From: Raillietiella orientalis | Lineage: Eukaryota | Direction: 5' to 3' | NCBI GenBank assembly: GCA_036172245.1 | Contig: JAYWIR010000013.1 | Location: 4,464,001 to 4,487,508, forward strand | DNA length: 23,508 nt | Part shown: piece by piece, positions 1-21,721 of the stretch | Layout: the number at the start of each line of letters is the position of its first letter | Numbering within the stretch: the first letter of the stretch is position 1 | Program-made: the position numbers and the translations under genes | Notes under the pieces: model-generated | What the model was told of the DNA's origin: nothing | The model's database searches: none | What the model saw: the letters and a program-made list of their open reading frames with translations, nothing else

Positions 1-1683
1 GTCTAGGATGCCCAGGCCTGCATCCTGACGCGGCGCCACCAAGTCTTGAAGTCTTACGGGGGATCTTGCAGCGCCCCACAGCGCTTTGCGTAGAAGGCGC
101 TGCGCCCAGACTTTGACTTTCTGGGGACGTGGACAAACAAAAAACAGGGGGCGGAGGAGATGGGCAACGAAGGTGTTCCAGATGCAGGCCCGTTCCGGCA
201 AGACGAACTCGCTTCCTGAAAACGGGCCAAGTGCACGCTCTGCCTTCCGAAGGCAGTCCGACCTCGCTTCTGAGATGCAGAATTCGTCCAACGGCACGTC
301 AAGGTACCTGAGGTACCTGCCCGTGGAGATCCTTAGGCCGATCCAGTCGGACTGCCCCTCCCACGTCGCAACCACCGGAACAACCATACACTTACCCCTG
401 TTAACGCTCACGCCCGCACCGCAGCGAATTAACTAAAAGAAGTCTTCAAGCGATGACGCAGGGGTGGATATGGGCAACAGGAGAAGCAGGTCGTCGGCAT
501 AGAATGTCACGGCCGGCGTACCTGGACAGAAGGTCGGCAGGTTAGCTAGCGTCAGCCTGTAAACCTCCAGCACCAATTCAAAAAAGAAAATAAAGAGCAG
601 CGGGGTTAAGCTATCACCCTGCCGAATTCCTCGTCGTACCGGCACGCCGTACACGCGACAGCCACTGAAAACAATGGATGTAATCGCGTGGCGCCAGCAG
701 GAGCGCAAGTACGCCAACAGGAATGCCGGAAGACCCAGACGTTCCAAAAGCTCAAGAAGAAGCTTTTGGTTCACGCAATCGAAAGCTTTGTGCAGATCGA
801 CTGCAACCGCCAAGGCTCCCGGTGTCTCCCTTTGCGTCCCGCGCCTCTGTCGGTGAGAGATCGAAGGCGTCGCTTCCGCACGACGATCCACCTCCACACG
901 AAGCTGCAATTGCAGCCATGTGCGGATGAACAAGAGATTCGCATCCATGGACCGTCCTGGAACAGCGTACGTCTGCTCCGGACTTACCAAGGATTCCGCG
1001 ATCCTACCCATCCGCGCCACCCAAAGTTTCCAGAACAACTTGACGTGCGAATTCACTAATGTGATCGGACGCCAGTTTTTCAGTTGGCGCAAATCTTCGC
1101 CTTTCGGCATTAGACGCACCTTCGCTGAGCAAAACGAGGCGGGCACATCGCCCGAGTATCGCTTCAACCACGAGAGTTGGAGAACCAGGGGGATGAGCTC
1201 CGCCGCAAAACACTGGAAGAATTCCGCGGGGAGCCCATCTTCGCCTGGCACTTTTCGACTCTTGAGCCCCGAGATGGCCGAGGAAATTTCCTCTGCCGTG
1301 AAGGGCTCATCAAGACGCGCGCGTTCCCTCTCGTGTACAACAGGTGCATCAATCGGCAGAAGCAGCCGGGAGAGGCTGCGTTCCGTCGGTGCCTCTGCAT
1401 ACAGAGAAGAGTCATAGCGCCTCACTATCCGTCGCAAGTCGGCTGGAGCCGAGCTTTCCCGGTCCCGGTCGTCGAGCAGAACTGTCGCCCCTGACTGCCA
1501 GACCTGGCGCTCGGCATAGGCCTTGTACTTAAATAATCGATAAACGTCCGGGCGCCTGGAAAGAAGCGGGCCTGCAGAAAATCTCTGCTGTTGGCAACGC
1601 CCTCTCGGAAGCCGCGCGGAAGCTGGTGCAAGGGAAACCGGCAGCAGAACTCGCGGACCGATCTTTTGAGATCGTCCCAGTCC
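1..1683 (-). pseudogene. Segment A: ORF2 (linker, RT and post-RT) of an L1/Tx1-like non-LTR retrotransposon, running off the window's left edge
   Basis: ORF 433..1791 carries RT motifs PGEDG, NWRPITLVN, DLHKAFD, GIRQGDSLTPLLF and YADD (490-501). After a TAG at 433-435 the same frame continues to base 1 (…ERACIWNTF…RQDAGLGILD). A frameshifted upstream part reads DWDDLKRSVREFC up to ~1683. The N-terminus of the called ORF is antisense read-through of B's 5' UTR. Confidence 0.93.
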
Positions 1684-1790
1684 TCGAGTCAGAGCGGCCG
1701 AGTTTTTGTTTCGCTCTTCAGCGTTTGTGGTTTTATTTTTATTCTTTTTTTTCTTGGTGTGCCAGTGGATTCGGTGGTGGCTAGGCAGCA

Positions 1791-2203
1791 ATGCCTCGGA
1801 CCATCACCAATGTTAAGGAGGGGGCGACGTCTATGTCGCCCCCTGAATCAATGGATGTGGGGGCAGCCGCCCTCACAGAAGCGACTCCCTCGCTAGGGAG
1901 AAGCTGGAGTTCCGTGTTTGCGGCACCAACGCAAGCCGCTGCATCTGAGTTAAAAGCCTACCTGGAGGAGGGGAACAATCATCCTCTACTCTACAAGTAA
2001 GGCAACTTTAACTCCTTTGAGAGTGCACGCACGTTCTCCAAAGCGATGCACTCCCTCAAAGTACCACAGGAGCAGCTCTTGGCGATGACCATCAGGAGTG
2101 GTGGACAGTACGTTGAGGTGATTTGCAAAGAAGCAAGTCTTGCCCAGCGTCTGCTCCGTACACCTGTTCCTTAATGGAATCGCCGGCTCCTTTGCATCAT
2201 GGA
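1791..2203 (+). pseudogene. B ORF1 (gag-like) N-terminal fragment
   Basis: MPRTITNVKEG… is nearly identical to C ORF1 MPGTTTNVKEG…. Stops at 1998-2000 and ~2173. Confidence 0.9.
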
Positions 2204-4880
2204 TGTTACGCGCGAACACCAGACGTACGCAGGCTAGCCGAATACCGTGCGGGAGTTGAGAGGCAGGCGTGGCAATCCGGGTCGGCCAGCTTACTGGACG
2301 ACCAGGGTTCGGAGCACTCGGCCCCCGACCAGGTAAAAGGCTTATTAAAAAAATTATACTCCTCTCTGTACGCGCGCGCTCCACCGGAACGAAATGTCTC
2401 GCGACTTCTTCTTCCGGAAGGCGCTCCGGCGATCGGGGAGAAAGATAGAAAGACCCTCGACGAGCCTTTCCCGATGGGCGAGATCATCTCGGCCATCGGA
2501 AAGCTCAAGAGGCGGTAGGCACCAGGAGACGACGGCGTGCCAGCGGAATTTCTTCAATGTTTCGCGGCAGAGCTCACTCCTCTGGTGAAGAAACTCACCT
2601 TGCTGATCCGCGAAAGGGGCGACGTCCCCGCCTCGTTTCGTTCGGCAAAGGAGCGTCTCGGCCCTAAGGGAGGAGACCTTCAGAGCATGAGCAACTGGCT
2701 TCCGAATACCGTGATAAACGCGGACACCAAGTTGCTGGCAAAATTGTGGGCTGAACGCTTGAGGCGGATAGCGGGAAAATTCATTAGCCAGGAGCAGACA
2801 TATGCAGTTCCCGGGCGAAGTATGGATGCCAACCTGTTCCTCGCCAGCACCTTTTTCGCGCTTCAACAGGAAAGGGTCAGGATGGGCAACCGGACTTCCG
2901 GAATGTCCGCCCCTAGGAAACGGGATGGTTGGGGGGGAGGGAGCCCTCGCAGTCGCAGTCGATTTGCATAAAGCATTCGACTGTGTCGACCAGAGGCTCC
3001 TCCTGGAGCTCCTGGAACGCTTGGGCTTCCCGGTCCCTTTGCTGACCTACCTGCGATCCTGCTGGCGCGACGCGCTCATTCAGATCTTTTTCAGTGGACA
3101 CTCCGTGCACGGCGTACCGGTGCGACGCGGCATAGGGCAGGGAGACAGCCTGAGTCCCTTGCTCTTCAGTAACTACTTCGAGTTGCTACTGAGAGCGTAC
3201 AGGGAAACTCTAGCGCACCTGCCGCGCGACTATCCCGGTACGCCCGCGGTGTCAGCATATGCGGACGACCTACTGCTGCTTCTCCCTATGTCCACCCCGG
3301 CATCGGCGGTCGAGGAGTTCTTCGACCTGCTAAGTCGGAAAACCGGGCTTTAGGTGAACAGGGCGAAGTCGTCCGTCATGCCAATCGGTGCGGCGTGGGC
3401 AGGGCAGCCGGACTGGGTCTGTTTGGGAATCCCCACGGTACGGTACTTCGAGTACCTCGGTGTACCGATGGGTGAATATCTCCCTTGGGATGCGTGGTGC
3501 AGCTGCCTTCAAAAGGTAGAGACGGCGATCGGCCAGTTTCAAGGCCGCAGGTTTTTCCTGCCGGAACGGGCCGCGGTGTGGAATTCATTCGCGGCGACCC
3601 TCCTCCGTTCCCTGCTTTTTGTTTGTCCCCCCACCACAGAGACTAAACAGCGGACGAAGGACCTACTAAGGATTGCCCTGTGGGGTAATGAAAGGGCCCG
3701 AGTCCGGATTGAGGACTTGAGCGCTCCGCGTCGGGACGGCGGTCTCGGCCTCCTGACGCTAGAGCGGCTGGAGCTCTAGCTTTAGTTTCGGTTACTCGTC
3801 CTAGTGGCGAAATATTGCAGTAACAGTTGGTGCGAGCCTGCACGTCTCCTCGTCGAGCAGGCTAGAGGCAAGGTGGGACTGTCATCCTTCCTTGCGTTCC
3901 GTCGGCGCCGCCTGTTCGGTCACTGCGGGTTGCATTTCCGGAGAGTGGCTGATCTGATGAGGAAGAACGCAGGATGACTCTGCTGTCGCCCCGTTCACGG
4001 ACCTGCATGGCTGCAGGAAACGGTTCAGACGTGGGCAAAGAGCAGCCAGCAACGCACCCAAGAAGGGCAGAAACAATTCTTCGCCCGTGATGACCGCCTG
4101 ACGCTCCGGGAGGTTCTGGAGAACCTCTAAAAACGAGCGTGGGCAAGAAGAACTCCCCTCACTGCAATGCTGTTTTCGTTCGCGGAACATTTGTACGGCA
4201 ACACCGCTGCAGCATGGGATGTGTATACTAAAATTTCCGGTACAGAAAAAAAGATCGAAGAATGAAAAACGGGAATTCTCTGCGATACTGCGGCCCGGAT
4301 TACCACCCCTATTGGACTTTTGCGCTGGGGCGAGCTGCTCAATGTTCCGCGGGAACAATTAAAGTGGCCCCCGGTGCTGATGAACACCTCCACCCTTTTC
4401 TTAAAATAGCAGGAGTCGGCGCTATTGTTGCCGCATTGGGGACTCCCCTGCAACGCCCGCCGACACCACTGGACCTCGGAAGCGGTAAGCCCTAATTGTG
4501 CGAGGTATGGAGAACGGGAGTCCCTCACTCATCTCCTTTTGGATTGTGTGGCTCTTCTGCCCCTTTGGAACCGTTTTGCCGCGGCAATCGGTAAGGCCTG
4601 TGGCAACCCCAGAGACGCAATTAGATCCCTCTTTGTTTGCGACGCCCTTCGGCCCTCTACCGCGTTAGCAGCTCTGTGCTAGTTTCGCGGGAGCGTCGCT
4701 GCATGAAGCAAAGCAACGGGAGGACCTCGCGATAAGGGTGCCGTCCAGTGCGCAGCCGAATTTATGCGGACGGCGACAGGATGGACCCATCTGGATTCAA
4801 CCATCCATAAACAGCTTGTCGGCATCCTGCAAAGGATGTAACGGCCCCACAGCAGACTGTGATCCCTTCCCGTGCCCCCT
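2204..4880 (+). pseudogene. B ORF2: RT and C-terminal zinc finger, disrupted
   Basis: DLHKAFD, GIGQGDSLSPLLF, YADD (3258-3269), DGGLGL and CARY-x7-H-x4-C (4497-4547, second Cys replaced by Tyr). Multiple stops and frameshifts (2516, ~2935, 3351, 3777, 4680). Confidence 0.92.
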
Positions 4881-5057
4881 AGACCTTGATTTTATATATT
4901 TCTTTTTTTTTTTTAAAATTTTGTTTTGTCCATGGCCTCTCTGCTGTCGTGGTGGACCGTGCCAGAATACGAACCGGTGACCCGGCAGGCTTAATTTTGT
5001 ATACCAGTGCGTAACCGGACCATCTGGTCAGCCACCAACGTTTGTTTTATTCCAAAG

Positions 5058-5087
5058 AATGAACGCCCCGATGCAACTGGGTGAAAA
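5058..5087 (+). promoter_or_regulatory. 3'-terminal motif of B: degenerate poly(A) signal, palindrome and short A tail
   Basis: AATGAA CGC CCCGAT GCAACTGGGTG AAAA, with the same spacing as the motifs at 14540 and 19260. Confidence 0.7.
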
Positions 5088-5192
5088 TCGAGCAAGAGCG
5101 GACGGGTTTTTGTTTCGCTCTTGAGCGTTTGTGGTTTTGTTTTTTCTTTTTTTTCTTGGTGTTTTAGTGGATGCGGTGGTTTCTAGGCAGCA

Positions 5193-6822
5193 ATGCCCGG
5201 AACCACCACCAATGTTAAGGAGGGATCGACGTCTATGTCGCCTCCTGAATCAATGGATGTGGGGGCAGCCGCCCCCACAGAAGCGACTCCCTCTCTAGGG
5301 AGAAGCTGGAGTTCCGTTGCTGCGGCGCCAACGCAAGCCGCTGCGGCTGAGTTAGAAGCCTACCTGGAGGAGGGGTCGAATCCCCCTCTACTCTACAAGG
5401 TAGGCAACTTTCACTCCTTCGAGAGTGCACGCGCGTTGTCGAAAGCTATGCACTCCCTCAAAGTACCACAGGAGGAGCTCTTGGCGATGACCATCAGGAG
5501 TGGCGGACAGAACGTTGAGGTGATTTGCAAAGAAGCAATTCTTGTCCAGCGTCTGCTCCGTACACCTGTTACTCAAGGGAATCGCCGGCTCCTTTCCATC
5601 ACGGAGGATAGATCTATCGTGATCCACCTCCTCGGAATCACCTTCCGGATGGCCGAAGAGGCTGTCCGAAAGGAACTAGTTAAATTTGGAACTGTCCACG
5701 CGTTGTGGAAAAAACCGACTTCGTTTTGGGAGTACGATCTCCTGAATTGCGGTATGGCTTCCGCGCGCATGACGGTCTGCGAGGGTTGCTTCCTACCTAA
5801 CAATCTGGAGGTCAACGGCGAACCCGTTGACATCTGGTATGTCGGTAAGCTGCATATCTGCGGGCATTCCAGCACTTCAGGTCACCTGAAAAAAAAGTGC
5901 CCTTACTTGCAGTGCAAGCAATGCAAGCAACCCGGGCACACTATTCCAGTGTGCCCGCAAAATGATGTCCGCGTCGCTTTCGCACGGAATGCGAAGAAAC
6001 GCGCAGCGAGAAAAAGACGAGATCAGGCAGCCCGAGAGAGAGCCGCCGCTAGATAAACAACTATCGTGCCCCAGGTGAAGGTCAGCTCCGAGATCTTGGA
6101 AAACTCGGACAAGGTCGAGGAGAACGGCCAGGAACCTGGATGGCAGGTAGTAAAATCCAAGAGGCAGAAAAGCCTCAAGGAAGCAAAAAAAAATGTCGCG
6201 AAACGCAGCGAGGATTTGGCGCGTTGCGAAAATATCAAAGGCTGCTCTGTCGTCATTAAGCGCATTCCTGCTGTCGAAAAGAGCGGCAAAAATGGACTCG
6301 TCCCTGCCGACTTTCAGCCCTCCGTCAAATTAATGCCGGAGGCTATCGGCCCGACGGTGGCGTCAGTCGTCGAACGCATGCTCGACGACGTCGCCTTTTA
6401 GCGGGCGGCGGAGGAGCTCGCTGCGTCCTTTCAGCGTTTCCTGAAATCCGCGAAAAAGACCTGGAGGTGTCCGACCTCGTTCAAGAAGTCGGAGATTCCG
6501 AACTCCGACGCAGAGGCGGAAAACACAGCCTTCGTCATTGCGGCCTCCCGCCCGAAGGCCAATCGCACGAAGATGGCTACCCGCAAAATTGTCCCGTCCG
6601 TGGAAAAGGATAGAGATAATTGAGGAAAGCGAGTGTGCCAATGAAGTGGGGAACTCCTGGGACTCTTCTCGAAAGGTAACCTCACGCTGCGCCCCCGGAG
6701 GGAGGGAAAGGGTAGAGTCTGTGCCCCAGATGCTTCAAGTGCCTGAGATAGCCGCGGTCCCCTTACTCGTCCCTCCCACCTGTCCCTTGACAGGTGCTGC
6801 AATGCCACGCTCCCAGCCTTAA
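5193..6822 (+). pseudogene. C ORF1: gag-like nucleic-acid-binding protein with two CCHC zinc knuckles and a K/E/S-rich tail
   Basis: ORFs 5193..6056, 6066..6401 and 6538..6822 form one interrupted gene. Knuckles are CGHSSTSGHLKKKC (one Cys lost) and CKQCKQPGHTIPVC. It ends in TAA at 6820-6822. Confidence 0.9.
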
Positions 6823-8227
6823 TGCCGGGAATCGCTTCTTACCGCCGTCTGCGAATTGCCTGTTGGAACGTCAACGCGCGAAGCAACAACGGTAAGAGAG
6901 GGGACATGGCCTCCACCCTGGCATCGTTCGACCTGGTGCGGCTTCAAGAGATCCACGTGATCTCCGCAGATCAAGCAACGGAGTTCGAGCTTATCACGGG
7001 TGGACGGCTGCTGTGGCGTTGCGGCACCGTTAAATCTTGCGGTGTCGTTTTCGTGCTTCGTCCAGCTGTCGAGACTGCGGCAAAAGGCGTACGGTTCGAT
7101 AGTGCCGGTCGCGTCGGGCAGTTGACCATCAGGTGGTCCGACTTTATCGATGTTGTCATTACCAACGTGTACGCCCCAAGCGGCAGCGATGCGCTAAGGG
7201 CAAAGGCAAGGAGAGATTTCTTCCTTACCCTGAAACGCGAAAATCTGGACAAAGCGGGAGTGCGCAAAGAGCACCTAATCGCAGGTGACTTCAACCTGCG
7301 CCTGCTGTCAGGTGCGTTTGACACACTTCGAGACCGCGTGAGCGAGCTGTGCACAGAGATGCACACGCGCAACTTGTTCGCGGAAAAACCGGAAATGGTC
7401 GACAGCATAGATCACGTGTTTTTTGACCAGCACCTATGCTCACGCGTGGGCAGGCGCGGCAAGTTACCGTCGGAACTGTCGGACCATCACCGGATCGTAT
7501 TCGAGGTGCGCCCACGCGATAGGGGTCATCCGTCATCTGCGTGGCGCTGAACGGGGGACTGGCTGAAACTTTTGTAAGCCGCGAAGCATATCCGCGGATT
7601 CATACGAGGTTTCAGCTTGCAGACGCTTCAAGCGCTCGGTCCGGAATTTTTGCGACGAGTTCACTATGAACCTCCTGCCTGCCGGGTTTGGTGAGAGCGT
7701 GCGTAACGAGAGATGGTATTTAGAATCTCGATGTTACGCGCGAACACCAGAAGGAAGCTGGCTAGCCAAATACCATGCGGGAGCCTAAAGGCAGGCGTGG
7801 CAATCCGGGTCGGCCAGCTTACTGGGCGACCAGGGTTCGGAGCATTCGGCCCCCGACCAGGTAAAAGGCTTATTAAAAAAATTCTAATCCTCCCGGTACG
7901 CGCGCGCTTCACCGGAAGGGGATGTCTTGCGAATTCTTCTTCCGGAAGGCGCTCCGGCGATCGGGGAGAAAGATAGAAAGACCCTCGACGAGCCTTTCCC
8001 GATGGGCGAGATCATCTCGGCCATCGGAGAGCTCAAGAGGCGGAAGGCACCAGGAGAAGACGGCCTCCTAGCGGAATTTTTTCAATGTTTCGCGTCAGAG
8101 CGCACTCCTCTGGTGAAGAAACTCACCTTGCTGATCCGCGAAACGGGCGACGTCCCCGCCTCGTTTCGTTCGGCAAAGTAGCGTCTCCTCCCTTAGGGAG
8201 GAGTCCTTCGGAGCATGTGCAACTGGC
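6822..8227 (+). pseudogene. C ORF2: APE-like endonuclease, linker and start of RT
   Basis: 242-aa ORF with WNVN, LQE, NVYAP, GDFN, IDH and SDH motifs. After the stop at 7548-7550 it continues with FKRSVRNFC, KAPGEDG and SMCNW. Confidence 0.94.
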
Positions 8228-8986
8228 CGCCTCCGGGTGGCTTAGCCAGTCTGCCGGCATCCTCCGAAAACAGTTTGGAGGCTCCTTGCCTGGCGGGAGC
8301 AACTCGAACTCGAGTTTGTTGTGGTCTGAAAGCACGGACGGCACGCGACCTCTTCTTCCCACTCAAGAGGGCAAGTGTTCATCAAGGTATACGTGGTCCG
8401 GCGTTGCTGGCATAACAGGGTCGCTAGCGAACAAGTTGCACGCGTGCAAGGACGCGCACATCTCTTCCGCTAGCAACTTTTCCCTTTTGTGGGAGCTATT
8501 CTCGGAAAGCAGGTGGACGTTAAAGTCCCCCGCAATGAGATGGGCCACAGTAGGGTGAGATCCGGTGAGCCACTGGCTTTGAACGGTACCGAAGAACACA
8601 ATTCTTTCGGTCCATCGTCCAGCACCGCTCGGCGCGTACACGTTGGTTACGACAAGGTCAATCGAGTCGGGCCACTTGAGTACAAGCTGTCCCACTCGGC
8701 CTTCCGTGTCGAAACGAATGCTGCGCACCGCTCCCGCCAAAGTTCCTCGCACGAGGAAAGCGACGTCGCACGTACGTGCAACGCCACACTTATAAAGTAG
8801 CGTTCCGCCCGCGCGCCTTTCGATTTCGGCAGCCTGCTTTTCAAAGATGCTGTGAATTACCTGCAAGAGCGTCAAGTCGAAGGCACGCAGAGCGTCAGCC
8901 ACTAGTCGCCACTTCTCCTCGTGTTGGAGCCCGTTGACGTTCCAAGACGTTACGGCAACACGACGAGAAGACGCGATTGCCCTCAT
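8227..8986 (-). pseudogene. D ORF2 APE endonuclease
   Basis: WNVNGL, LQV (catalytic E replaced by V), NVYAP, GDFN and DHVY, then a frameshift near 8363 followed by SDHNKLEF. Confidence 0.92.
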
Positions 8987-10890
8987 GACGGCTTGGAAAG
9001 CGAGGCCGTGGTGCTCGCCTTACCCGGCGAGCGGGCAGTAAGCAGCACGACGGGCTTGAGGGCGCGGTCGCCACCGGCCTCAACTGTGCTGCACGTTATC
9101 CAGTGCTTCTCTCCGGGTGCAGAACCTGTGAGTTCCGGGGTGAGCACTCGCCGTTTTGTGGCGAGTTTGTCACGCCTCAGGGCTTCAGCCCTGCGGGCGC
9201 TCGCTCCCGCGCGAGTAACGCGTCGTTCAGCGGCGCTATCAGACTCCTTTGCGGAGTCTGATGCTCGCACGATCGACGTGCGCTTGCATCCGTCCGATTG
9301 CACCTGAATGGTCTTCTCGGCGGTCACATAAGCGGACTTGCATGCGTTGAAGGCGCTGGCTTTTTCCTGGGAAGAGGCACAAGCCACGAGTGTTTCGGTA
9401 TTCGAGCGACGGCTTTTTTCTATGGAAGAGCTCAGGGATGGATGTGGCGAAGCTTTTTTTTGGAGATTTTTCTTCCCTCCTCTCCACAACCTTCCATTCG
9501 CCTTCGCGATTTTCGGAGGCTTTCGCGACAGTAGTTTCGGAAACCTCCGGGATTTTCGCTGCGTTCTCTGGGGGCGTTGCTCTCGCTGCGAATTTGAAGG
9601 GCGGCAACGAAGTCACCTTCTTGACAGTCGAGAGATAGCTCCTCTCCTGCCGAGTGGGCGATGGGACGACTGCATGCAGCGTGCTTTTTCTCGTCGCGAC
9701 GCTGCCTTTTACGGCTTTCGTCGTTTTTGCAGAGGGCCCTGCGCTGCAGTGGGGCTGTCCGGAACTCGGAAGGGACAACGGAACGGGGCAAGAAGTCTTC
9801 GTAATGTTGCGATCTTCCTGTTCTCCTACCTTTCCCTCCAGGGTGTTACGGAGATTTCCTGGTTCCTGGCTCGGAGAGGTGCCTGCGAGTTCGGCAGCGA
9901 GGGAGGGCACGGCACGCGTCAAACCCCCGTGCCCATGTTTAATTGGCTTTCCAGCCGTGACTTTCTCCTTTCGGGGCGTTGCGGCCGGGGATACTTTCTT
10001 TTCATCCAAGGATAGCTCGTTGTTTTTCCCGAGTGTTTGCGGACGACGTTTTCTATTTGCCGCTCCGGCTTTTCGTGCAGTGGTCTCTTGAACCCGACAA
10101 ATTTCCGCTGCGGCTCTTTTTCTTGCAAGTACCGGGCACTTTTTGATTTCGTGCTTGGAATCTTTGCAATAGCGGCATCTTGGAGAGAAGCACTCTTTAA
10201 TTCGGTGCCCCTCCTTGCCGCACTGCTCGCACGCAAGAGTCTGGCCTATGAACCACAGGTGAATGAGCGTGCCTTTCACCTGCAGCTGCTCAGGCACAAC
10301 ACGCCTGTTCGCGACGGTGATCCGCGCGGAGGTTTGTCCGATGTGGACAGAAGAGAAATCCTTGAAAGTGTTCGGCCTCCTCCACAAAGCGTGCACGGTG
10401 GCGAAATTCGAGAGCACGCTGACAACATCGCGGTCGGAAATTTCCGGTTCGATGTTGCACAATTGAACGACAAAAGAGTCGTACATCGCGGTAGGTAGGA
10501 CTTTTTTGCCATTGATAATAAACGGCGTACGGAGAAGGCACTGAAAAGTGCTGCGTTCTTGCAACGAATCTTCGTATATTCCACCCTGCTAGCAGGCATT
10601 ATGGCAAGAAGTTCCTCTTCGCGAACTCCGATCAGGACGAGCTCATCATTGAGTTCACGACCTATTCTCCCGTTAAGGGGCCCACTGATATTATAACGGA
10701 GTGCAGGCATGTATCCTGATGACACATATGCCTGGAACTCCGCATCGCAGGGTCCTGGTCTTTAAGAGGTAACGGCGGCGTAACTCCTCACCGGGTGCGA
10801 GGACGCCATTACGGAGGATGCGGCCACTTCAAGTGCAGCTGAAGCGCATCCAGTGGCTTGCTTCTTCACACTTTCCTGTGTACTGTCCAT
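8983..10890 (-). pseudogene. D ORF1: gag-like protein with two CCHC knuckles
   Basis: ATG at 10890 (MDSTQESVKK…RSYAAV), then ORFs 10276..10725, 9239..10564 and 8983..9489 joined by frameshifts. Knuckles are CEQCGKEGHRIKEC and CRYCKDSKHEIKKC. Confidence 0.88.
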
Positions 10891-10960
10891 GTTGCATTAT
10901 GCTACTTGCCAGATTTCACAGGAACACACAAGTGCGAGCGAAAACGCAGGCACAAAGTTG

Positions 10961-12486
10961 CCCGATCGTTGGCGCGGATCGTTGTGCGGAAGCCATCGCT
11001 TCCCCTTCGACGGGAGAGACGAGCTTCCTCGGCTTTGTGGACTTACGTCCAGCCTTCTTGCGGGGTGTCGTGGAAACGGAGGCTGCGCTTCCGGCCTCCA
11101 CCTCAAGGTCGGAAGTGGGGCATTCCTGAGGATAGGCCGGACGCCTTACCGCCTTCTTGCCAGCCTTGGAGGGTTCTGGCTGCAACGAGGCTGCCAGCTT
11201 CTCCGCGGCTCGCGCGAAGGCTACGTCATCGATGGTGGTGTCGACGACGGACGCCGCCGCCGGCTCGCTCCCCTCGCTGTTGACAGAGTAAACAGAGGGG
11301 TTGTCGTCGGTAGCGTTGAATTCTTTTTGGCAGCGTTCGGCAACGCTGCACTCTTTAATTTGCTCACTTGCCTGCTGTTTTTTCTGGATGTACGCGAGCT
11401 TTTTCTCTAATCCTTTTCCTGTTTTTGTTTTTTTGGCTGTTGTCACCTGCCACTTAGACTCGTGGCTGATTCCCTGGACTTGTTCGGAGTTGTTCGCCGG
11501 GGTCTCGGGTGTTGCCTGGGCCTTGGGCGCGGGTGGCACAGCCTTCGTGGCAGCATTCGCCTCCAGGTTTTTCTGCAGCAGCCGGGCGCGTTTTTTAAGG
11601 TTTCTCTTGGAAACCACCCGCACTGCTGTTTTTGGGCACACCTCCCTCGTGTGCTTCATTGTTCCGCAAACTTGGCACTGCACGTTGTGGCACCTCTTTT
11701 TGAGGTGGCTCGACGTATTGCAGAAGCCACAGTATTCCGGCTTTCTCACATTCCAGATGTCCACGGTTTCGCCTTCGTCCACCAGTTTGTGAGGAAGAGT
11801 GCAATTCCCCCGAACGATCACGCGCGCCGCCGTGAGGCCGTGTTGCAGCCCCGTGTAGTCCTGGAAAGGACTAACTTCCGTGCACTGTGCGTGGACCGTT
11901 CCGAACTGTTCCAGAGCGGCGCGAACCTGTTCTTTGCGCATTCGCGCGGTTACGCCTAACAGGTGGACCTCCATGCTGCGGTCCGCCGTAGTGGGGAGGA
12001 GCCTGCGCGTTTCCATCACAACGGGGGTTTAAGCAGTCGTTAGGCCAGCTCTGCATGCTTGCAGATGACCTCAACGTACTGACCCCCGGTGCGGATGGTC
12101 ATAGCGGTGAGCTCCTCCTCTTTCACATCGAGAGCGCGCATGCCCTTCGAGAAGGCGCACGCGCTCTCTAATGAATAGAGATTGCCAACCTTGTAGAACA
12201 ATGAGGGGTTACACCCCTCCTCTACACAGTCCAATTTCGTTGCAGCTGCATTCGATGGCGCCGACACAACGGCGCTCATCGCTTGCGCCGCAGCGTGGAC
12301 CGATTCTGTGGAAGCGGATGCCCCATCTCCATCGCCTCTGGGGGCGACGTTGCCGCCGCCCCCTGGCCATCCCTGGTGGTCGCGTCAGTCATCGCTGCCT
12401 GATCCACCACCGAACCACACGACGCTTGCACTGGGGGAGACTTCCTGACACAAGGAGCACCAAGAAAACACGTCCGCCCTTGAGCG
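10961..12486 (-). mobile_element. Segment E: 5' end and most of ORF1 (ATG 12392) of a family related to B/C
   Basis: 5' motif GGGCGGACGTGTTTT. EEGCNPSLFYKVGNLYSLESA… aligns with C EEGSNPPLLYKVGNFHSFESA…. Knuckles are CGFCNTSSHLKKRC and CQVCGTMKHTREVC. Frameshifts near 12290 and 12030. It fuses to D's UTR near 10960. Confidence 0.9.
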
Positions 12487-14569
12487 CACAAGGCGTTTAA
12501 CTGCGTAAATTAGGATCTCCTGCTAAAGCTCCTGGAACGCCTCGGTGTCACGGTGCACCTCGTAGCGTATTTGCGCGTTTGCTGGCGCCACGCGCTTATT
12601 ACCATCTCTTTCAGCGGCTGTCACGTGTACGGCGTGCCGGTTTAGCGGGGCACAAGGCAAAGCGACAGCTTAAGCCCATTGCTCTTCAGCATCTTCTTTG
12701 AGTTGGTTCTGAGGGCGTACAGGCTGACGCTGGCCAACCTGCCGAGCTCTTGTCCAGGAACGCCGTCCGTGACAGCCTAGGCTGACGACCTGCTTCTCCT
12801 CTTACCGATGACAACCCCTGCGTTCAGTATCGAGGATTTCTTCGAGCTGATTCGCCGGGGAGCGGGCATGAGCGTAAACATGCGCAAGAGCGTGGTCGTA
12901 CCTATTGGTGCGGCGTGGGAGGGGCAGTCCGACTGTATCCGTCTGGATATCCAGAACGCTTCGTCCACCCAATATCTGAGCGTTTTGCTGATGAACATCA
13001 ACCCAATGGAAGTGTGGTCGGAGTGCCTTCGGAAGGCTACCAGTGCTCTGAGCCCGTTCCGGAGTCGCAGGTTCGTCTCGGTGGAGCGGGCCACGATATG
13101 AAACACCTTCGTTGCCCCCCTGTTTCGTTTTCTGCTTTTTGTTTGCCCGCCTTTCGACTCGGTCAAGCTCCAGGCGCACAGCCTGTTGAGGAACGCTCTG
13201 TGGAGACCTGCGAGGTGTAGGATCTGCCTAAAACACTTAACGGCACTGCGTCGGGATGCTGGATTAGGCATCCTGACGCTGGAGAGAATCGTGTAGCAGG
13301 TGCAGCTTCGGATGTTGGCCCTGTGCACCAACCTTTAGTCCACTCCGTGGTGCGCTCCCGCGCGCCTGCTTTTGCGGCGCTGCACAGGCAGTGATGGACT
13401 TCTATTGTTGCGTCCGCACACGGAGATCCCCTCGACAAGTTTCGATTTCCCTTTGAAACCGCTATAGCGGCTCCTAACAGCCCAGGAATGGATCTCCTGC
13501 CGCCCAACGAACTTTCAAGCCTGGCGGCAGGAACCGTTATATGGCTGGGCAAAGCACCAGGATGTTTCCCTCCTGGAACTCCGTTGCGTTCACCTCTCCC
13601 CGTACTGCACGGTGGATGAGGTCTGCAGCAGCCAGGAGAAGTGGATCGGCCTAGCCATCACCTCCCTCGCCGACGGACTGTCAGCCCTCAGGGCAAGAGA
13701 TGAAGCTGCGAACCGGCGAGATGAAAGGTCACCTGCACTATTGCAGGAACAACACGACCTATTGGCGGCTGGAGGACTTGCGAGCTGGCAGACGCCGCCA
13801 CGCCTCGCCACATCTCGTAGGGACTCCTTCGGTGAAGTGAAAACTTGAGTGTGCCCCCTGAAGAACTTGTGGTCCCTCCCTCCTGTTTAAACACTTCTTT
13901 GTTCCCCCTTTCGTGGAAGCAGGACGTCATCATGCTGGTGCATTAGGGTTTTCACTCGAACCAGAGGACGAACCGTGTTTCCGGGGGAGTTGTCTCCCCA
14001 AACTGTAAGCGGTGTGTGGAAGTGGAAACGCTCCTGCACCTGCTTTTGGACTGCAGTGCCCTCCAAGGACTTTGGCGGAGGCTGGCCTCAGCTCTCCTGC
14101 ACCAGGGGGACGCCGCGAGGGACTTGATGCGCCGCTTCTTCACGCCAGGCGGCCTGTCATTGGGTACTGTCGTTGCAACCGTGTGTTGCACCCGCGCCAT
14201 CGACAAGGCCCACCGAGAGTTGGAGAAGCTGGCCATCGTTCGTCAGCCCACCGGATTAGCCAGCGCAAGCATGTCGTCGGCTGCCGAGTGGGCCCACCTT
14301 CCACAGGACGTAAGGAGAGAGATCGCCGGCATCCATCGCCGGTTTTGAAAAGAAGGAACGGACTCACCAAAGACCCCTGTCCCCTGTTCTCCATATTTTA
14401 ATTTTTTTATAGTAGTGTATTTGTGGTCCCCTCCCTCCCGTTCCGGACTTTCAGCATACCGACCTGCGTGTTGGGGATCCCACCCCATTCGTCTCTAGTC
14501 TTTCCCTTTGTCCTGGAGCTCTGTTCCCGGATAGTTTTTAATAAACGCCCCAACGCACCCGGGTGACAA
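12486..14569 (+). mobile_element. Segment F: 3' part of an element, from the RT HKAF motif to the 3' terminus, degenerate
   Basis: Begins HKAFNCVN*. Contains SLSPLLFS, YADD changed to *ADD (12778-12789), DAGLGIL and CKRC-x7-H-x4-C (14004-14054). Stop at 14401, then the 3' motif at 14540-14565. Confidence 0.9.
14540..14569 (+). promoter_or_regulatory. 3'-terminal motif of F: AATAAA and perfect palindrome CACCCGGGTG
   Basis: AATAAA CGC CCCAAC GCACCCGGGTG ACAA. Confidence 0.72.
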
Positions 14570-16350
14570 CCAGCCGCCCCCCTGCGATCCTCTCGATCTC
14601 CTGGGAGTTCTCCCCGGTGATCACGTGGATCTCCTGCAGGAGTGCCAGGTCGAAGTCACGCAGGGTGGAGGTCGTGCTACGTCTGTTGCCGTCGTCACGC
14701 ATCCCGTTCACGTTCCAGCAGTCCACGCGTAATTGACGGCGACAGGTGAGCTCAGGTGTTATTACTGGGTAAGTAGCAATGGGGCTCCCGCCACCTGGTC
14801 GGGCGGGACGGATAGAGGAATGGGATCACCGCGCACCTGTTCTCCCTTTCCATGGTGGACGATTCCTCGTCAGACCGCAACGGCTGAAGGGGGCGGGTGT
14901 CACGTAACTGCTCCTCCTCTTCCATGGGGGACGATTCGTCGGCTGCGCTGGACGGCAACGGGGAGCGGTTGTCAACCTTCTGCTCTCCCTCCTCCATGGG
15001 GATCTCTAGGTGCTCGGTAGCTCTGGGTGGGAAAATCCCTTTCTCCGTTCCCACGCTACCGGCTTTATCCTGGCCTTCCTGTGGGTCCCCCTCCTTCTTT
15101 GTCGGGATGCGCCTCTTCGGATTCTTGGGCTTCCGTTCATTCTTCTTCGGAGGCCCCTCCGCGGAGGAGGAGGCACTTCCGTCATTCGGTTCGTGGACAC
15201 CTGTCGGAGGTGCGTTGCTCGCGACCGGCCTTCGCAAGGCCTTTTGCGCGCCGTTCTCACGGTCCGCGAGCTCGGCCGCGAGCTCTTCCGCCGCCTGTTG
15301 GTAGGCGGCGTCCTCGATTGCGGCGAGCGCGTCGCTCGGCTCCCCCTCTGTTTGTACAGAGGGTTCGCCTTCCTCGATCGCGGCTTCGGCGTCAACGAGG
15401 CGGGAGATATCTCCCCCGGTGGAGGTCTCGGGGATCTCCACGGGCTCCAAAGCGACCGAACATTCGCGGAGCAAAGCGCGGCCTTGCCTTCTATTTGAAG
15501 AAGTTGTCGCGGGTTCCGCTGTCGGTTCTTCGGTTTTTCGGCTTTTTTTACTTTTCGGCTTCGCTGTCCGCCAGTCCTCGTTGTCACCAGCGTCATCGGG
15601 AGTTGTCTCGACCGCCGTTGGCTGGGAGCATTCGGACTCTGGCTTTTTGCTTGGCCTTTCCTTTGCTTCTGTGGGCTTGCTTGTTTTCCCCAAGCGTTTC
15701 TTCTTACCTTTTTTCAAGGCAGAGGGCGCTGGAGGTTCCGGTTCTAAGCGCACTTTCCGGAGGTGGCTTTTCTCCCTGTATTGGGAACACTGGATGTGAG
15801 GGCACCGTTTTTTCAAGTGCCCACAGTATTTAGGCTTGGCCACGTACCAGATGTCGACGACCTTGTTGCCGACGCCGAGTTTGTGGGGCAGCCCACCGTT
15901 TTCGTGGACGGTCACACGCTCTGAGGCCATGCCACTGAACAATCTTCCGTAACTTTGGAAGACGTTCGGCTTGGTCCATACCGCGTGTACCTTTCCGAAT
16001 TTACTCAATTATGCAGTCCGCCCATCAAATAATGGATCTGCTTGATATATCAGAGAGGGTTTGTACTCTACTGCCCGGTAAACCATCTGTTCTGCCGAGG
16101 CTTCTGCGCTGGGCGCTGCCACCATGGCGCTCCATGTCTTCGTCTGCTGCGGCGAAGACGATTCAAGGGCTGATGCTTCCGATCCAGTTTGCTGTGGTGA
16201 CGAACTAGCGTTGCCTACGCCTACTTTAATCACGGTGTCCTCTGGCATGATAGCCATCGGACACCGGCGATGTGAAAAAGCAGAAACACTCGAACAAAAA
16301 ATTCTTTTCAAGCCTCGCTGACAGGGCGACAGAAAACCACGTCCGCTTGC
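14570..16350 (-). mobile_element. Segment G: 5' end, ORF1 (internally deleted) and first ~65 codons of APE
   Basis: 5' motif AAGCGGACGTGGTTTT. ORF1 MAIMPED…KTWSAMV, SKFGKVHAVW and damaged knuckles. APE fragment VDCWNVNG…LLQEIH…GGRL is cut at F's 3' end. Confidence 0.9.
14830..15005 (-). repeat. Degenerate 72-bp (24-aa) tandem repeat in the G ORF1 tail
   Basis: CCATGG recurs at 14850, 14922 and 14994. The protein reads PMEEGEQ…ESS / PMEEEEQ…ESS / TMERE. Confidence 0.75.
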
Positions 16351-19290
16351 AGCGGGGTTCTAGGTAGGCATTCGGAACGAAACGGCTTACCTTTAGGCCC
16401 GTCGTTACAACCGAACACCCTACTTCCGAATATTGGCGGAATAATATGCTGAGACGGAGCGGCAGGCCTGGCATTCCGGGGCGCCTAGCCTTATAGACGA
16501 GAGCTTGGAGCACTGGTCCCCTGAAGAGTTGAGCATCCTATCTCGTGGTGATTATTCCTCCCTGTACGCCAAGGTGTCTTCGGATTGAAAGCTTTCTCAG
16601 CCTTTGCTTCCGCATGCTGCTACGGCGATCGGAGAGAAGGAGAGAACACGCCCATACGAGCCTTTCATGATGGGTGAAAGCATGACCGCAATCGGTAAGC
16701 TGAAAACGCAAAAGTCACGTGGTGATTACGACCTGCCCGGGGATTATTTTTGGTGCTTCGTTGCGGAGCTGGATCCCCTGGTGCAGCGGTTAATGCCGTT
16801 GATCCGGGAGACAGACGACGTTCCCGCCTCCTTCCGATGGGCACGGATGCGTCTTCTCTCGAAGGGTGGATTCTTACGGGACCTCAGCAATTGACGTCCG
16901 ATCACCGTTATGAACGCGGAAACCAAGCTGCTTGCGAAGCTATGGTCGGAGCGAATGGGGCGAGTGGCGGAAAGCTTCATCAGCTCGGAGCAGACATACG
17001 CTGTTCCCGGGCGAAGCATGGACGCCAACCTGCTCTTCGCGATTACCTGGTTCGAGTTCCAGAGATGTAGAAAAAATTAAAGAAACATGGTCGGCACCTC
17101 GATATGCGGGACGTCCGCTGGTGGTTTTCGGGATCGTCGGGAGCGCGAGGGGGCCCTCGCGGTCGCAGTCAGTCTGCGAAAGGCATATGACTGTGTCGAT
17201 TAGGAGCGCCTGCCGGAGCTTCCGAAGCGCTTGGGATTCTCAGCCCATTTATTGGCCTTTCTGCGCTCTTGCTGGCGGGACGCGCTGACCAGTATTACTT
17301 TTAGTGAAAGCAACGTGTTCATGTGCCGATGCGCCGCAGGATACAGCAGGGGGACAGCTTGAGCCCCTTGCTCTTCAGCACCTACTTCGATATGGTGCTG
17401 AGGGCGCACAGGAAAACTCTTGGTCGCCTGCGGCGCGTGTGCTTAGGTACATCGGTTGTGGCTTCGTATGCAGAGGATCTTCTGCTGCTGATCCCTATGT
17501 CTAGCCCGGCGTCGGCGCTTGATAACTTTTACGAGCTGCTGCGTTGCGGGTCAGGGCTGGAGGTGAACTGAGCGAAGTCTTTCGTGGTTGCAGTTGGTTC
17601 GTCGTGGGCTGGGCAGCCGGACTGGTCTAGCTTGAGGATCCCCACGGTGCCGTACTCCAAGTACGTGATTATGCCGTTGGGGGACTATTCCTCTGCGGAA
17701 GCGTGGTTTAGCTGCCTCCAAAAGGCCGAGAGGGCGATCGGCCCGTTCCAGGATGGCAAGTCTTTCCTGCCGGAACAGGCTGTGGTGTGGAACACGTTCG
17801 TTGCCCTTCTTTTTCGCCTCTTGTTTTTTTTTTGTCATCCACCCTGCAGTATCAAAAAACGAACAAAGGATCTCCTCGGAATCGCCCCTTGGAGCAGAGG
17901 TAGGCCCCGAGTCTGTATGAAATGCCTGTGTGCCCTTCGTCGCGTCGGAGACCTCGGCCTCCTTACGCTGCAACGACTGGGACTGCAGCTGCAGTTCAGG
18001 AAGTTAGCCCTATTTGCGAAGTCATGGAGCACCTGCTGTTGCTAGCCTGCGCCAGATCTGGTTAATGGTGCTGGCGGCTGCGCGGGAATGTCCACCTCCT
18101 AGGGTGCTTCAATCTTTGGTACCTGTTCCGCTGTAAATTGCACTTCGGCGAGTGGCGAAGTTGAGCAACACGAACACATGGATCTCCTGCCGACCAGCGA
18201 ACGGCACTTCTTGGCTGTAAGAAAGCTTTCATACGTGAGCCCTGATCAAGGTAGGGAGCCCAGAGTTGCGGCAGCGAATGGTGCACTCCTATCACAATAG
18301 TTGCTCGCTGCAGGACATCATCGTGAAGCACGCCTTGAAGGCATGGAATGAGAGGATTTCCCTTGCCACGGCTCTGTCCCACCTCAGGGAGCACCTGGGA
18401 AGTAGCCAGCCAGAGAAAACGGAAATCAGGTGTAGTATCTCTGTGAGAGAGAGAGTGCAAGGTGGTTGGACCACGGGCGAGTTGACAGACGCTGTGAATC
18501 CAAGTGAACTGCTGAAGGGAGTATTCCGTCAGGGCAAGCTGCTGAGCATCCCAATGGATGTACTCCGGTGGCCCGCGGTGCTGAAGACTAACAGGGTCCT
18601 CTCCATGACGTAGCAGGATTCAACATCCTTGATGTTGCACTGAAGTCTCCCCAGCAATGCCCGCCGTTCTCACTAAACGGGGGAAGCTGTGGACTCAAAT
18701 TGTTTCAGGTGCGGGGAACGGGGAACCCTCCCGCATCTTCTTCTTGACTGTGTTCCTTTTTGGTCCCTATGGTTGCGTTTCGCAACAGCCCTAGGAGCAC
18801 CCACGAACAATCGCAGAGATGTGTTGAAGCGCTTCCTTGTGCGCGACGCCTTTTCGCCTGCCGCAGCCCTTGCAGCACTCTGCTGCCTTCGAGGGATTGT
18901 GGCGGCCTGGAGCAACGGTACTGGTGGACCGCACGATAGGGACATCATCTGCTGAACCCTGTGGTTGCTGAGCATGGCAGCCGGATGGTGCCACTTAAGA
19001 TGTATGCGGACTGAACTTGCCGGCATCTTGGAAAGTATGAAGAGGACGACCCCAAAGGAACGTGTTCGCTTTTCCAAGCAATCCCTACTTTTGTAAAAAG
19101 CGTTACCTTTTTTTCTTTTTCAATTGTCCTTTGCCCTTCCGCTGCCGAGTCGAACTCGACAGTCTGCGTGCTGGCTAATCGACAAGTTCAAAATTTTAAT
19201 TAGAACATTCCTCGTACGCTGTAGGAGCAATGGCCATACGCTTCCTTGTTTATTGAAAAAATAAACGCAGGGGAGCACCCGGATGTAGAA
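16350..19290 (+). mobile_element. Segment H: ORF2 from linker to 3' terminus, heavily degenerate
   Basis: N*RPITVMN, EQTYAVPGRSMDAN, IQQGDSLSPLLF, YAED (17467-17478, catalytic D replaced by E) and CFRC-x7-H-x4-C (18701-18751). Stop near 19094, then the 3' motif at 19260-19285. Confidence 0.92.
19260..19290 (+). promoter_or_regulatory. 3'-terminal motif of H
   Basis: AATAAA CGC AGGGGA GCACCCGGATG TAGAA. Confidence 0.7.
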
Positions 19291-19344
19291 GCAACGCAGT
19301 CTCCTGTCAATCCAACAGAAACGCGCTGCTCACCCAACGCTCTA

Positions 19345-20440
19345 TGGGCCTCTCTACTTCTCCCGGAAAAATACAAAGTAGCATACTCCAGGGCACAAAA
19401 TCTTTAATTGGGACTCTAGGAATATGCACAAGTATACCAGCTATATACGCTTATACAGACGATCTGCTGCTGCTGCACTTGAATTTGATTTCAGCACAAA
19501 CGCTTGGAAATTTCCTCTAGTGGCTACTCCGGGGGAAGAGACTAGAGATGAGCAGAGTGATGTGGCATGCGGTAGTAGCCCGTTTGACGTTGTTAGGGCA
19601 GACGGACTGGTTAAGATCAAAAATCTGTGCGACCCTATTCATTAGTCACCATAGCGTGTTGCTTGAGGGCTATTTAACTGCGGAGTTGTAATTAAAGTGT
19701 CACTAAAAGGCTGTCACTGTGATGGCTCCGGTGGATGACCAATTATATTTCCGAAACGGCTGCGGTGTACAACACTTTGTTCCATCCCCTTTTGCTTTCC
19801 TGCCCAGCAGAGAAATAAATTAAAAAAAACTTAGGTGTGATCGATTTCTAAAACGCAAATAGGTTCAAAAACCAGAAAAAAGACTTGTTCTCTCCAGGAC
19901 GGGACCATGAACAGGGTTTCCTGCTTCTCAAGCGGCAACAGCTTCCGCCCTAGTTTAGAATGGTTGCCCTTGTGGAGACGGTATGGTGCAAATTGCGTTG
20001 CGACGGAGAACGCCATGACGTACGGAAAGCCAACGGAAAGGTACAAATAGCGTTTTTCGTTTCACTCCAATATCATCCATTCGCCCACTGTGCATAGCAG
20101 TTTATAAGGAGAGAAACGTGAACCGGAAGAATTTCAAATAGAACCAATGGGACCCAAAGATGGTACCTCCAGCATGCAAGAAACCGTTTGCAGGATAAAC
20201 AGAATCCAGTAGCGAAGCATGAAACCAGTACACCGGTGATTCTCACTGGAATTTAACGGTTCCGCGCTCGGCAAAGATCTGTAGCACTCCAGTAAATGTA
20301 TTTGAGCATCAAGAACTTCGACCAAATCAGCTTTAATCTCTCTTAGGTAATACCTATGCAGGAATATGGCAGAAAAAAAAAACATATATTAATACATTCG
20401 TTTAAAAAAAAGACAAGGAAAGTGAAAGACGTTCAGCTCA
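19345..20440 (+). pseudogene. Segment I: very old, A-enriched ORF2 relic of the same group, not shown by the ORF track
   Basis: Manual translation gives AYTDDLLLL (~19449-19475), GQTDW, ETAAVYNT, DLFSPGRDHEQGFLLLKR…FRMVALV, ANGKV…FAHC and MQETV. These are colinear with B's AYADDLLLL, GQPDW, ERAAVWNS, DLSAPRRDGGLGLLTLER…FRLLVLV, ARGKV…FGHC and LQETV. Confidence 0.8.
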
Positions 20441-21229
20441 ACGACGATAAAACGGTTCAATGTGGTGAAGTAACCAGCTAAACCAAAAAAAACAACATTA
20501 TAAGACGGCAACTGTGAAAAAACAGAGCACTTCGGATAAGGGGGGATTCACTGCGGTAGCACGTTTCAGCATAATTTATAAACTATAAGAAGCATATTAA
20601 CATCATGTAGATAGTGCTGATAACTTCCGCAATTAAAAGGAGAAAATATCCGCAGTATATTTAAGACACACAGAACCTCTCAGATGATAAATGTAAAAAC
20701 TATTAATCAAGAAGACCGTGAGAGCTTTGAAAGACACAAAAATTAAGGTAAACTTCCCCAAAAAATGCTTGCATATTTGATGAACGAATTCAACTTTGGA
20801 AAATCTTACAAGAAAGACATAATGAAAAAGAAAAACATAATGTACAACGTCTCCTTTGTGTTCAACTTAAAAGAAGACAAGCAAAACCAAGAAGTGTTCT
20901 CAAATGTTACCACTGGAACTCAATTTCGAAAGCCTTCCGCAAAACCCTATCACATAAAGAACAAAGAAACGTCGTGATTTGACGTTAAAGAAAACGATGA
21001 AACATACAACAATGAAGGGGTTAAAGATTTTGGCATGGCAACAAAACTTTCTAACTAGAAGAAAGAAAAATGTAGATACCAATTCAAATTAAGAAGCTTT
21101 AGTTCTCCATTTCACTTACTCTACTAAGCTTCCCATAGAAAATTCCTAACATTTTCTTCCAAGTAGGTAATTAACAAAATGTAAGAATAAGACGAACCGG
21201 AAAATTCAGAAATTTTAGGTTCTACAAAC

Positions 21230-21721
21230 ATGGAAACACAACAAGAGGTGTTACGGAATCATGATAAGCAAAAGATTATGAATGAGATAGAAATACTGTA
21301 TAGATGGTAGCTAAGGAGCGCATACTACATAAAGTATAACAGCGATGTATTTTGGGATTTCGTCAGTTTAGCTAACAGCAATGATGACATAGATGCTATA
21401 CCACACCTAGATGACTCATTGAAATACAGGCTCAGAGAAAACGGATTTTGGAAAATCGGACACATACATGGATTTCTACGACATCAAAATTACGATGGAT
21501 TGGAATCTGCAACCATACTGGGCTACATAATCGGAGACCATAGACCGGAAGCCATTGAACAAATGAAATTTCTCGTTTTCATACTCTACTACTGGATAAT
21601 CAGCACAACAAGGTGGAACTAAAAAAAACAAATATATAAAAAACATATTAGGCATTCCAAAGTAGTGAGATTACAAAAGGAAAAAGAAGACTGGGTTAAA
21701 ACGATAATCAGCATAGGATAA
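21230..21721 (+). pseudogene. Degenerate coding relic, possibly the ORF2 C-terminus of an AT-rich LINE family
   Basis: A 163-codon frame with only two internal stops (21308, 21620) in AT-rich DNA. The pattern DAIPHL…FWK…ILGY…YYWII…RWN loosely resembles L1-type ORF2 tails, but the finger cysteines are absent. Confidence 0.35.

Follow-up and report, generated by a model that had tools for sequence, protein, structure and literature searches.

Recurring target sites of LINE families in the coding sequences of sister families at a contig end of Raillietiella orientalis

Composition of the contig end

The right end of contig JAYWIR010000013.1 (C13) in the assembly GCA_036172245.1 of Raillietiella orientalis was analyzed over 23,508 nucleotides (nt; positions 4,464,001 to 4,487,508 of the forward strand), here called the window. 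Decayed long interspersed nuclear elements (LINEs) of L1/Tx1-like type fill its positions 1-20,100. The assembly comprises 210 Mb in 491 contigs, and comparison with element copies elsewhere in it reveals that each LINE family has its own recurring target site, which lies within sister-family coding sequence. Window segments carry the letters A to I of a preliminary description made from the sequence alone; further family letters (Z, Y, K, X, T, P, U, D2, G2) are our labels, C1, C5, C43, C102, C166 etc. are other contigs of the same assembly, and L-numbers (L001, L070 etc.) denote fetched genomic loci. Minus-kb positions give the distance to the left of the window. Residue numbers refer to a natural 1,188-amino-acid (aa) copy of the second open reading frame (ORF2) located 19-22 kb upstream of the window, with an X at its stop.

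Protein homology to a single LINE group covers 91% of positions 1-20,440, and most of the remainder is untranslated region (UTR), so that the earlier picture of a stack of about 20 kb built from one group of transposable elements holds. The same homology extends over 85% of the 100 kb upstream. On the other side, no homology to our LINE references was found in 20,110-22,412, and a Pfam search of six-frame translations of 19,290-22,402 (segments I and J) yielded nothing.

Pfam detects an Exo_endo_phos domain in C (E 4e-10) and an RVT_1 domain in A (Table 1), an order that is colinear in full-length copies; matches to zf-CCHC (E 0.003 and 0.025) and zf-RVT (E 0.004) all fall below the curated cut-offs, and ORF1 is present. 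With an N-terminal apurinic/apyrimidinic endonuclease (APE) followed by a reverse transcriptase (RT) in ORF2, the elements are, judged by their domains, non-LTR (long terminal repeat) retrotransposons of the APE type and L1/Tx1-like. The RT is closer to L1 than to elements with a restriction-like endonuclease: its best PDB match is human L1 ORF2p (E 6e-36, vs 5e-16 for R2) in a comparison set that holds no other APE clades. A homolog search with the RT of A returned 14 matches at 23-30% identity, unnamed save for two labeled 'hypothetical protein', and a protein-cluster atlas gave RVT_1 clusters only. L1 elements in the strict sense end in a 3' poly(A) tail. Assignment to this strict clade was rejected because F and H ends lack such a tail (the A-run after the 3' motif measures 0-4 nt in 59 of 60 ends and 14 nt in one).

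Table 1. Features of the window (coordinates within the 23,508-nt stretch)
Feature	Position	Strand	Remarks
A: RT half of D/A-family LINE, ORF2 aa ~267 onward	1..1689	-	93% to uninterrupted D/A copy 80-86 kb upstream; RVT_1 E 6e-14
B-A target-site remnant, C-family site, host codons ELEDWD antisense	1684..1689	+	same junction in 20/22 other C 5' ends
B: C-family copy, natural 5' and 3' ends	1690..5087	+	internal deletion at 2204/2205
TCGAGC, 6-nt target remnant between tandem B and C	5088..5093	+	same spacer type in L256, L258
C: C-family copy with natural 5' end, ORF1 and APE, breaking off at ORF2 aa ~474	5094..8229	+	
C-D junction	8226..8232	.	probable deletion, from comparison with uninterrupted D/A copy
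D: 5' half of D/A element (ORF1, APE to aa ~252)	8230..10975	-	first ~33 nt gone
E: 5' part of E-family copy, ORF1 broken	10976..12487	-	natural 5' end lies in RT motif DLHKAF of F (ORF2 aa 568), antisense
F: RT to natural 3' end	12488..14567	+	3' end abuts APE aa 64 of G, antisense
G: natural 5' end, ORF1, APE to aa 64	14568..16352	-	5' end abuts ORF2 aa ~289 of H, antisense
H: ORF2 aa 289 to natural 3' end	16353..19287	+	3' end antisense at aa ~1052 of host in I
I0: short antisense host piece, ORF2 aa ~1052, reads QETALLL	19288..19382	-	C166 has an uninterrupted homologue of this site
I1: old, diverged RT piece, ORF2 aa 640-886	19383..20091	+	31-33% identity to reference
J: AT-rich decayed repeat of unknown kind	20441..22412	.	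five homologues elsewhere
(TTAGG)n array, 221 copies, contig end	22413..23508	+	

Family-specific target sites and independent insertions

The preliminary description saw no shared target sequence at the junctions, which is true across families only; within a family the site recurs. Among the 30 best E 5' ends (window included), 26 lie antisense at ORF2 aa 567/568 in the RT motif DL(H/R)KAFD, three stand behind another E end and one is at a different position. Searched genome-wide with an exact pattern and read by eye, 94 of 97 E 5' ends run into host codons around KAFD, and host codons for EIERI follow 70 of 73 D 5' ends, the remaining three being placed behind a D 3' end; both patterns demand a non-A first base and skip decayed copies, so that these fractions may be slightly raised. 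In 26 of 29 other loci the D 5' end is found at APE aa 52. C-family 5' ends lie at a linker codon (20 of 22 at aa 266-271) and all 15 3' ends outside tandems at aa 267 (tblastn placed 14, a 33-bp match one), in a sample of 40 regions picked from match tables that includes three further loci chosen as tandems. G-like 5' ends fall at aa 289-298 in 20 of 30 cases (window included); these come from several subfamilies, which are 70-82% alike and differ slightly in position.

F and H show only a weak preference for their sites. Directly at aa 60-64 we find 11 of 30 F 3' ends (window included), or 12 if one behind a short duplication is counted, and near aa 1052 about 5-6 of 30 H 3' ends; most of the other F and H ends have unrelated flanks and share a short AA(A/C)CAG or AAAGCA consensus. 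Site use by E and C is far from what the frequency of short motifs offers: each of eight references holds 16-25 TCGA per strand, yet each of the two families uses one position.

Because the same family-specific sites recur genome-wide, the B-A, E-F, F-G, G-H and H-I junctions of the window are canonical sites. B-C is a head-to-tail tandem with a 6-nt target remnant, and the remnant identifies it, in our reading, as a re-insertion at a regenerated site. Inside B, the internal deletion joins ORF1 aa 138 to ORF2 aa 309.

Orientation is fixed per family and mostly antisense. A census by eye of 30 motif-detected ends in the window and the upstream 100 kb counted 20 antisense ends on a coding flank (one doubtful), four in sense, four in tandems and two without a coding flank; the underlying motif scan missed some real ends, e.g. 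the H 3' end. A rule of 'always antisense' was rejected, since X/T ends lie in sense in E-type ORF1 at aa 287 and D2 and U ends in sense at APE aa 154-156; antisense insertion is thus a bias. Further recurring sites in E and its neighbors were noticed in L081-L100, namely at ORF1 aa ~229 of E (an antisense 3' end), at ORF1 aa ~288 (sense) and at ORF2 aa 55, 268 and 441.

Flanks that are far more divergent than the elements they adjoin argue for independent insertions. For 26 on-site E loci, median identity is 92% within the element and 70% in the flank; the flank lies more than 10 points below the element in 301 of 325 pairs, and the flanks form 10 clusters at 80%. The corresponding medians for 26 D loci are 98% and 72.5%, with the flank more than 10 points lower in 251 of 325 pairs and three flank clusters. 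These comparisons suggest that insertions were mostly independent.

By best match, C inserts into D/A (8), Z (7) and F (5), and D into E (9), P (6) and C (2), plus nine hosts in an unassigned group 74-79% from C, P or E; F is found in G, X, G2 and E, and E in many families. Since C lands in D/A and D in C, these two form a reciprocal pair, as do E and F. Short-spacer tandems aside, the on-site flank best matched the own family in none of the 20 C, 26 D and 11 F loci and in one of the 26 E loci (89% like E itself). The reference sequences of C, D and F deviate at the very codons that these families target. Between families, the ratio of nonsynonymous to synonymous differences (pN/pS) in the RT is 0.29-0.49 (13 pairs). 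Trees built from 17 APE rows and 17 RT rows agree on a group D/F/Z/Y/(D2 or U) (support 100/99); other forks are weak. Family F looks young: one copy has a stop-free frame of 958 codons (L083:709-3582). In 33 of 40 other rows, F copies share 95-99% identity over 1 kb.

Copies with both flanks carry short site repeats, of 11 nt in Y, 13 nt with one mismatch in K and about 6 nt in C; overall, target-site duplications of about 6-15 nt, often imperfect, accompany the both-flank copies of Y, K, C, H and E. The common 3' end consists of AATAAA, a small hairpin with a family-typed loop (after AATAAA in 79 of 120 motif matches) and 1-4 A, with no poly(A) tail. Site repeats and 3' ends together would fit target-primed reverse transcription with a site-reading AP endonuclease. 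The 5' repeat of E looks alike across hosts; a target-like leader carried by the element would explain why this repeat is imperfect, a situation for which R2 5' junctions provide a parallel. A KAV variant (for KAF) of the E target remnant recurs before different host families (L021-L050), hinting that the remnant may travel with the element.

Nesting, sequence loss and the chromosome end

Serial nesting in the order I>H>G>F>E>D/A>B/C had been proposed for the window. Insertion into relatives is supported, at fixed sites, and the orders I>H>G>F>E and D/A>B/C fit the junctions and, roughly, the ages; the step from E to D/A is not a canonical insertion. The best other copy among the fetched loci is 73% identical for I, 82% for H, 86% for G, 94% for F, 89% for E, 92-93% for D/A and 91-94% for B/C. 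A natural terminus on the right and a coding break on the left, described as the rule for each segment, is found for the H 3' (~19,287), G 5' (~16,350), F 3' (~14,567) and E 5' (~12,486) ends; it fails for D, whose right end is not natural, for B, whose natural 5' end lies on the left (~1,690), and for C, which is broken on the right. Segment I proved composite, with about 95 bp of antisense host at ORF2 aa ~1052 followed by a plus-strand RT piece. That D and A belong to a single element, interrupted by B-C, is borne out by an uninterrupted copy 80-86 kb upstream, which matches both halves at 91-93%. A runs on for about 1.1 kb left of the window, where it lacks its 3' UTR and is joined to an E-type ORF1 piece 87% like E.

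Nesting further predicts that the missing halves resume upstream. The 100 kb upstream hold no match of at least 80% to F's 5' half or to the window's H or I, and no E that resumes beside the 3' end of A (the E pieces there are not next to A); some 35 kb of cluster sequence between roughly -139 and -100 kb (C13 4.325-4.364 Mb) lie outside this reading. The only other match to F's 5' half on C13 among 41 rows is situated about 110 kb upstream, directly before an F 3' part, and this copy is apparently uninterrupted. With these halves missing from the 100 kb examined, the cluster does not form a single intact Russian doll. Between -124 and -139 kb it fades out: one of 12 samples of 600 bp, the nearest, was positive.

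Loss and exchange of sequence may account for the remaining junctions. At its right end, D lacks about 33 nt that are present in all 29 other D loci; C-D is best read as a deletion of probably some 2.4 kb (C's 3' part and about 40 nt of D), and D-E as a deletion or a joint formed by short homology. Different host families on the two sides occur in two of six full-length C copies (paired by spacing) and in one of three E copies, and the upstream D/A copy is likewise mismatched, with E at 93% on one side. From these cases, exchange between copies appears to be common.

TTAGG is the usual arthropod telomere repeat. A search with the TTAGG pattern gave 149 forward matches and none in reverse, and the 100 listed all lie within the window's array; no array of at least three TTAGG was found in the 200 kb read. 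The array begins about 3.1 kb from the last element end, and no window junction contains TTAGG. Telomere targeting of the SART/TRAS or FoTeR type was rejected, as no junction lies in telomeric repeats. The array joins in the middle of repeat J (22330-22420), whose five homologues on C43, C166 and C102 run past that point and are mutually similar. This continuation suggests telomere addition at a break inside J, i.e. a candidate healed chromosome end, with an assembly join as the alternative.

The same families also cluster far inside contigs, at C13 2.44-2.56 Mb (1.9 Mb inside the contig), near 8.05 of 12.19 Mb on C1 and at two places in C5. Because of these interior clusters, the subtelomeric hotspot of the preliminary description is not supported. 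Of 170 E and D pattern matches, 22 are on C1-C20 and most on smaller contigs. In the public DNA run X1, related elements appear as short contigs (317 records at >=85%, 8 of them at >=99%, mostly <95% alike).

Origin of the clusters and relation to known systems

We consider it probable (about 0.8) that a limited radiation of APE-type LINEs gave rise to the clusters, each family using target-primed reverse transcription to enter a short site of its own in sister coding sequence. The endonuclease of each family would nick its own site, in the antisense families presumably on the coding strand of the host, and every new copy would bring sites for other families. Since new copies bring new sites, piles would grow by themselves. 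Later deletions and exchange between copies would then remove or swap halves, leaving runs of one-sided junctions like those of the window. The position of the pile at a telomere might merely reflect that the chromosome end was set inside J, and no telomere-seeking by the elements.

Several observations weigh against this explanation, in addition to the partial specificity of F and H and the possible inflation of the pattern counts. In all three both-flank E copies the duplications are imperfect, with 3-4 mismatches in 15 nt. Some junctions were copied: among 325 flank pairs each, 7 for E and 66 for D are at least 90% alike, and the F-G junction (window 14551-14850) is 95-100% identical to that of L070, 107 kb upstream. 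A 70-nt test for C found no gap between element and flank (89% vs 86%). Finally, stop codons are more frequent in B/C than in its host D/A (16 in 1,365 vs 2 in 833 codons, Fisher p 0.025), an anomaly that plain insertion order would not predict. The two F-G junctions share a variant 3' motif and their F bodies are only 82-99% alike; local conversion or duplication is a candidate reading for this pair.

The clustering could also arise if the elements were tethered, Zepp-like, to a chromatin domain rich in relatives and cut there at a motif of 4-7 bases, the apparent sites being the few good motifs. Such regional targeting would suit the wide insertion of F and H with a short consensus only, the cut beside TCGA shared by E and C, and the one cluster per chromosome of Zepp and ZeppL (PMC3446292, PMC8226300; here and below, published systems are described from the accessible parts of the cited texts). 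We regard it as unlikely: each element holds the short cores many times over, on either strand, yet nearly all E and D ends of the genome-wide search sit at one site in one orientation. A still smaller chance falls to old segmental duplications that spread a few chance junctions through the genome. Blocks upstream of the window are duplicated (2.5 kb at 93%, 3.7 kb at 83%), as is the F-G junction at -107 kb, and the locus pairs L031/L032 and L045/L047 are identical. Duplication of this kind is countered by the divergence of the flanks relative to the elements and by the many host families (for E, 10 clusters among 26 loci); moreover, the hosts diverged with an excess of synonymous changes, while F copies remain nearly alike in most rows. 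For E and D it is largely refuted already.

We give equally little credence to one intact doll at a subtelomeric hotspot or transposon trap, with its missing halves further upstream. Five consecutive closing junctions, a rough age gradient toward the telomere and the stretch from about -53 kb to -14 kb, in which most natural ends face the other way, speak for it; the absent halves, the fading of the cluster, the interior clusters and the C-D and D-E joints, which are not insertion junctions, speak against it.

Within the favored explanation of site-reading sister families, a bolder version can be put forward, tentatively and at somewhat unfavorable odds: a network of mutual predation. The endonucleases may have evolved to read constrained coding motifs of rivals (RT DxxKAFD, APE EIER/GRL and AGDFN, C-terminal QES/TAL), which a rival could hardly mutate away. 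The attacker's own copy, differing at the site, would be spared, and an insertion would kill the rival copy and create sites; the E leader would guide attachment of the second end.

Among known systems, the Tx1 clade offers APE-RT elements that likewise have another transposon as their preferred target. Tx1 inserts in Tx1D, Tx1-Mar in Mariner-N4_AMi, Tx1-8_Crp and Tx1-4_AMi in LTR elements and Tx1-9_AMi in Harbinger; U2 genes, RNA genes and microsatellites are further targets (PMC4494074). By the mark of >20% of flanks given in that text, E, D, C, G-like and F ends qualify and H is borderline with its 5-6 of 30. The families seem to behave like target-specific Tx1 elements, a likeness in targeting. 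Unlike the DNA transposons, LTR elements, RNA genes and microsatellites reported for Tx1, the targets here are coding motifs of sister LINEs, with C/D and E/F as reciprocal pairs.

Zepp of Coccomyxa C-169 and ZeppL of Chlamydomonas nest in existing copies and form one cluster per chromosome, probably centromeric (PMC3446292, PMC8226300). They resemble our elements as L1-type LINEs in GC-rich nested clusters, and Zepp was first seen near telomeres and later mostly in chromosome interiors. There, however, a single family (one or two ZeppL per species) nests in itself and leaves mostly 3' ends, whereas here many families cross-target fixed sites, many copies keep 5' ends, and insertion into the own family is nearly absent from the on-site loci. 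Counter to one cluster per chromosome, C13 has at least two, one terminal and one interior.

Long non-LTR arrays at chromosome ends are also known from Cnl1 of Cryptococcus, whose subtelomeric arrays expand and contract (10.1101/2021.08.11.455996), and from FoTeRs (PMC12857005). Both are tied to chromosome ends, and FoTeRs are flanked by telomeric sequence; here, no TTAGG junction was found and clusters lie far from the telomere. Grem-LINE1 of Mucor shares the zinc finger, AP endonuclease, RT and zf-RVT, and is confined to gene-free regions; nesting at fixed sites in sister families has no mention for Grem-LINE1 in the accessible text (10.1101/706580). Target-specific Tx1 and self-nesting Zepp are known, and what appears to be new is the mutual targeting of sister-LINE coding motifs. 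We found no account of LINE families that target each other's coding motifs in a literature search that left out most subscription journals, Repbase Reports and the supplements of PMC4494074.

The window is hence one example of a genome-wide system and not a 'subtelomeric hotspot'. Within one genome, a large set of sister enzymes seems to recognize different sites, while specificity has otherwise been compared across distant species with few known cases; domain swaps between sister enzymes could show how an AP endonuclease changes its specificity. Conflict between transposon families becomes measurable in terms of who hits whom and who escapes, and large gene-free transposon clusters could build themselves without a telomere or satellite seed.

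Two minor observations concern the upstream cluster. A 6.8-kb insert of lower GC content, without LINE-group homology or a Pfam match in six frames, breaks it (L005:1-6440, about -50 to -43.5 kb). The divergent family K looks circularly permuted in L001/L002, about 5.5-11.1 kb left of the window: its 3' portion, starting at ORF2 aa ~120 and complete to the 3' terminus, stands before a 5' part that ends at aa ~119.

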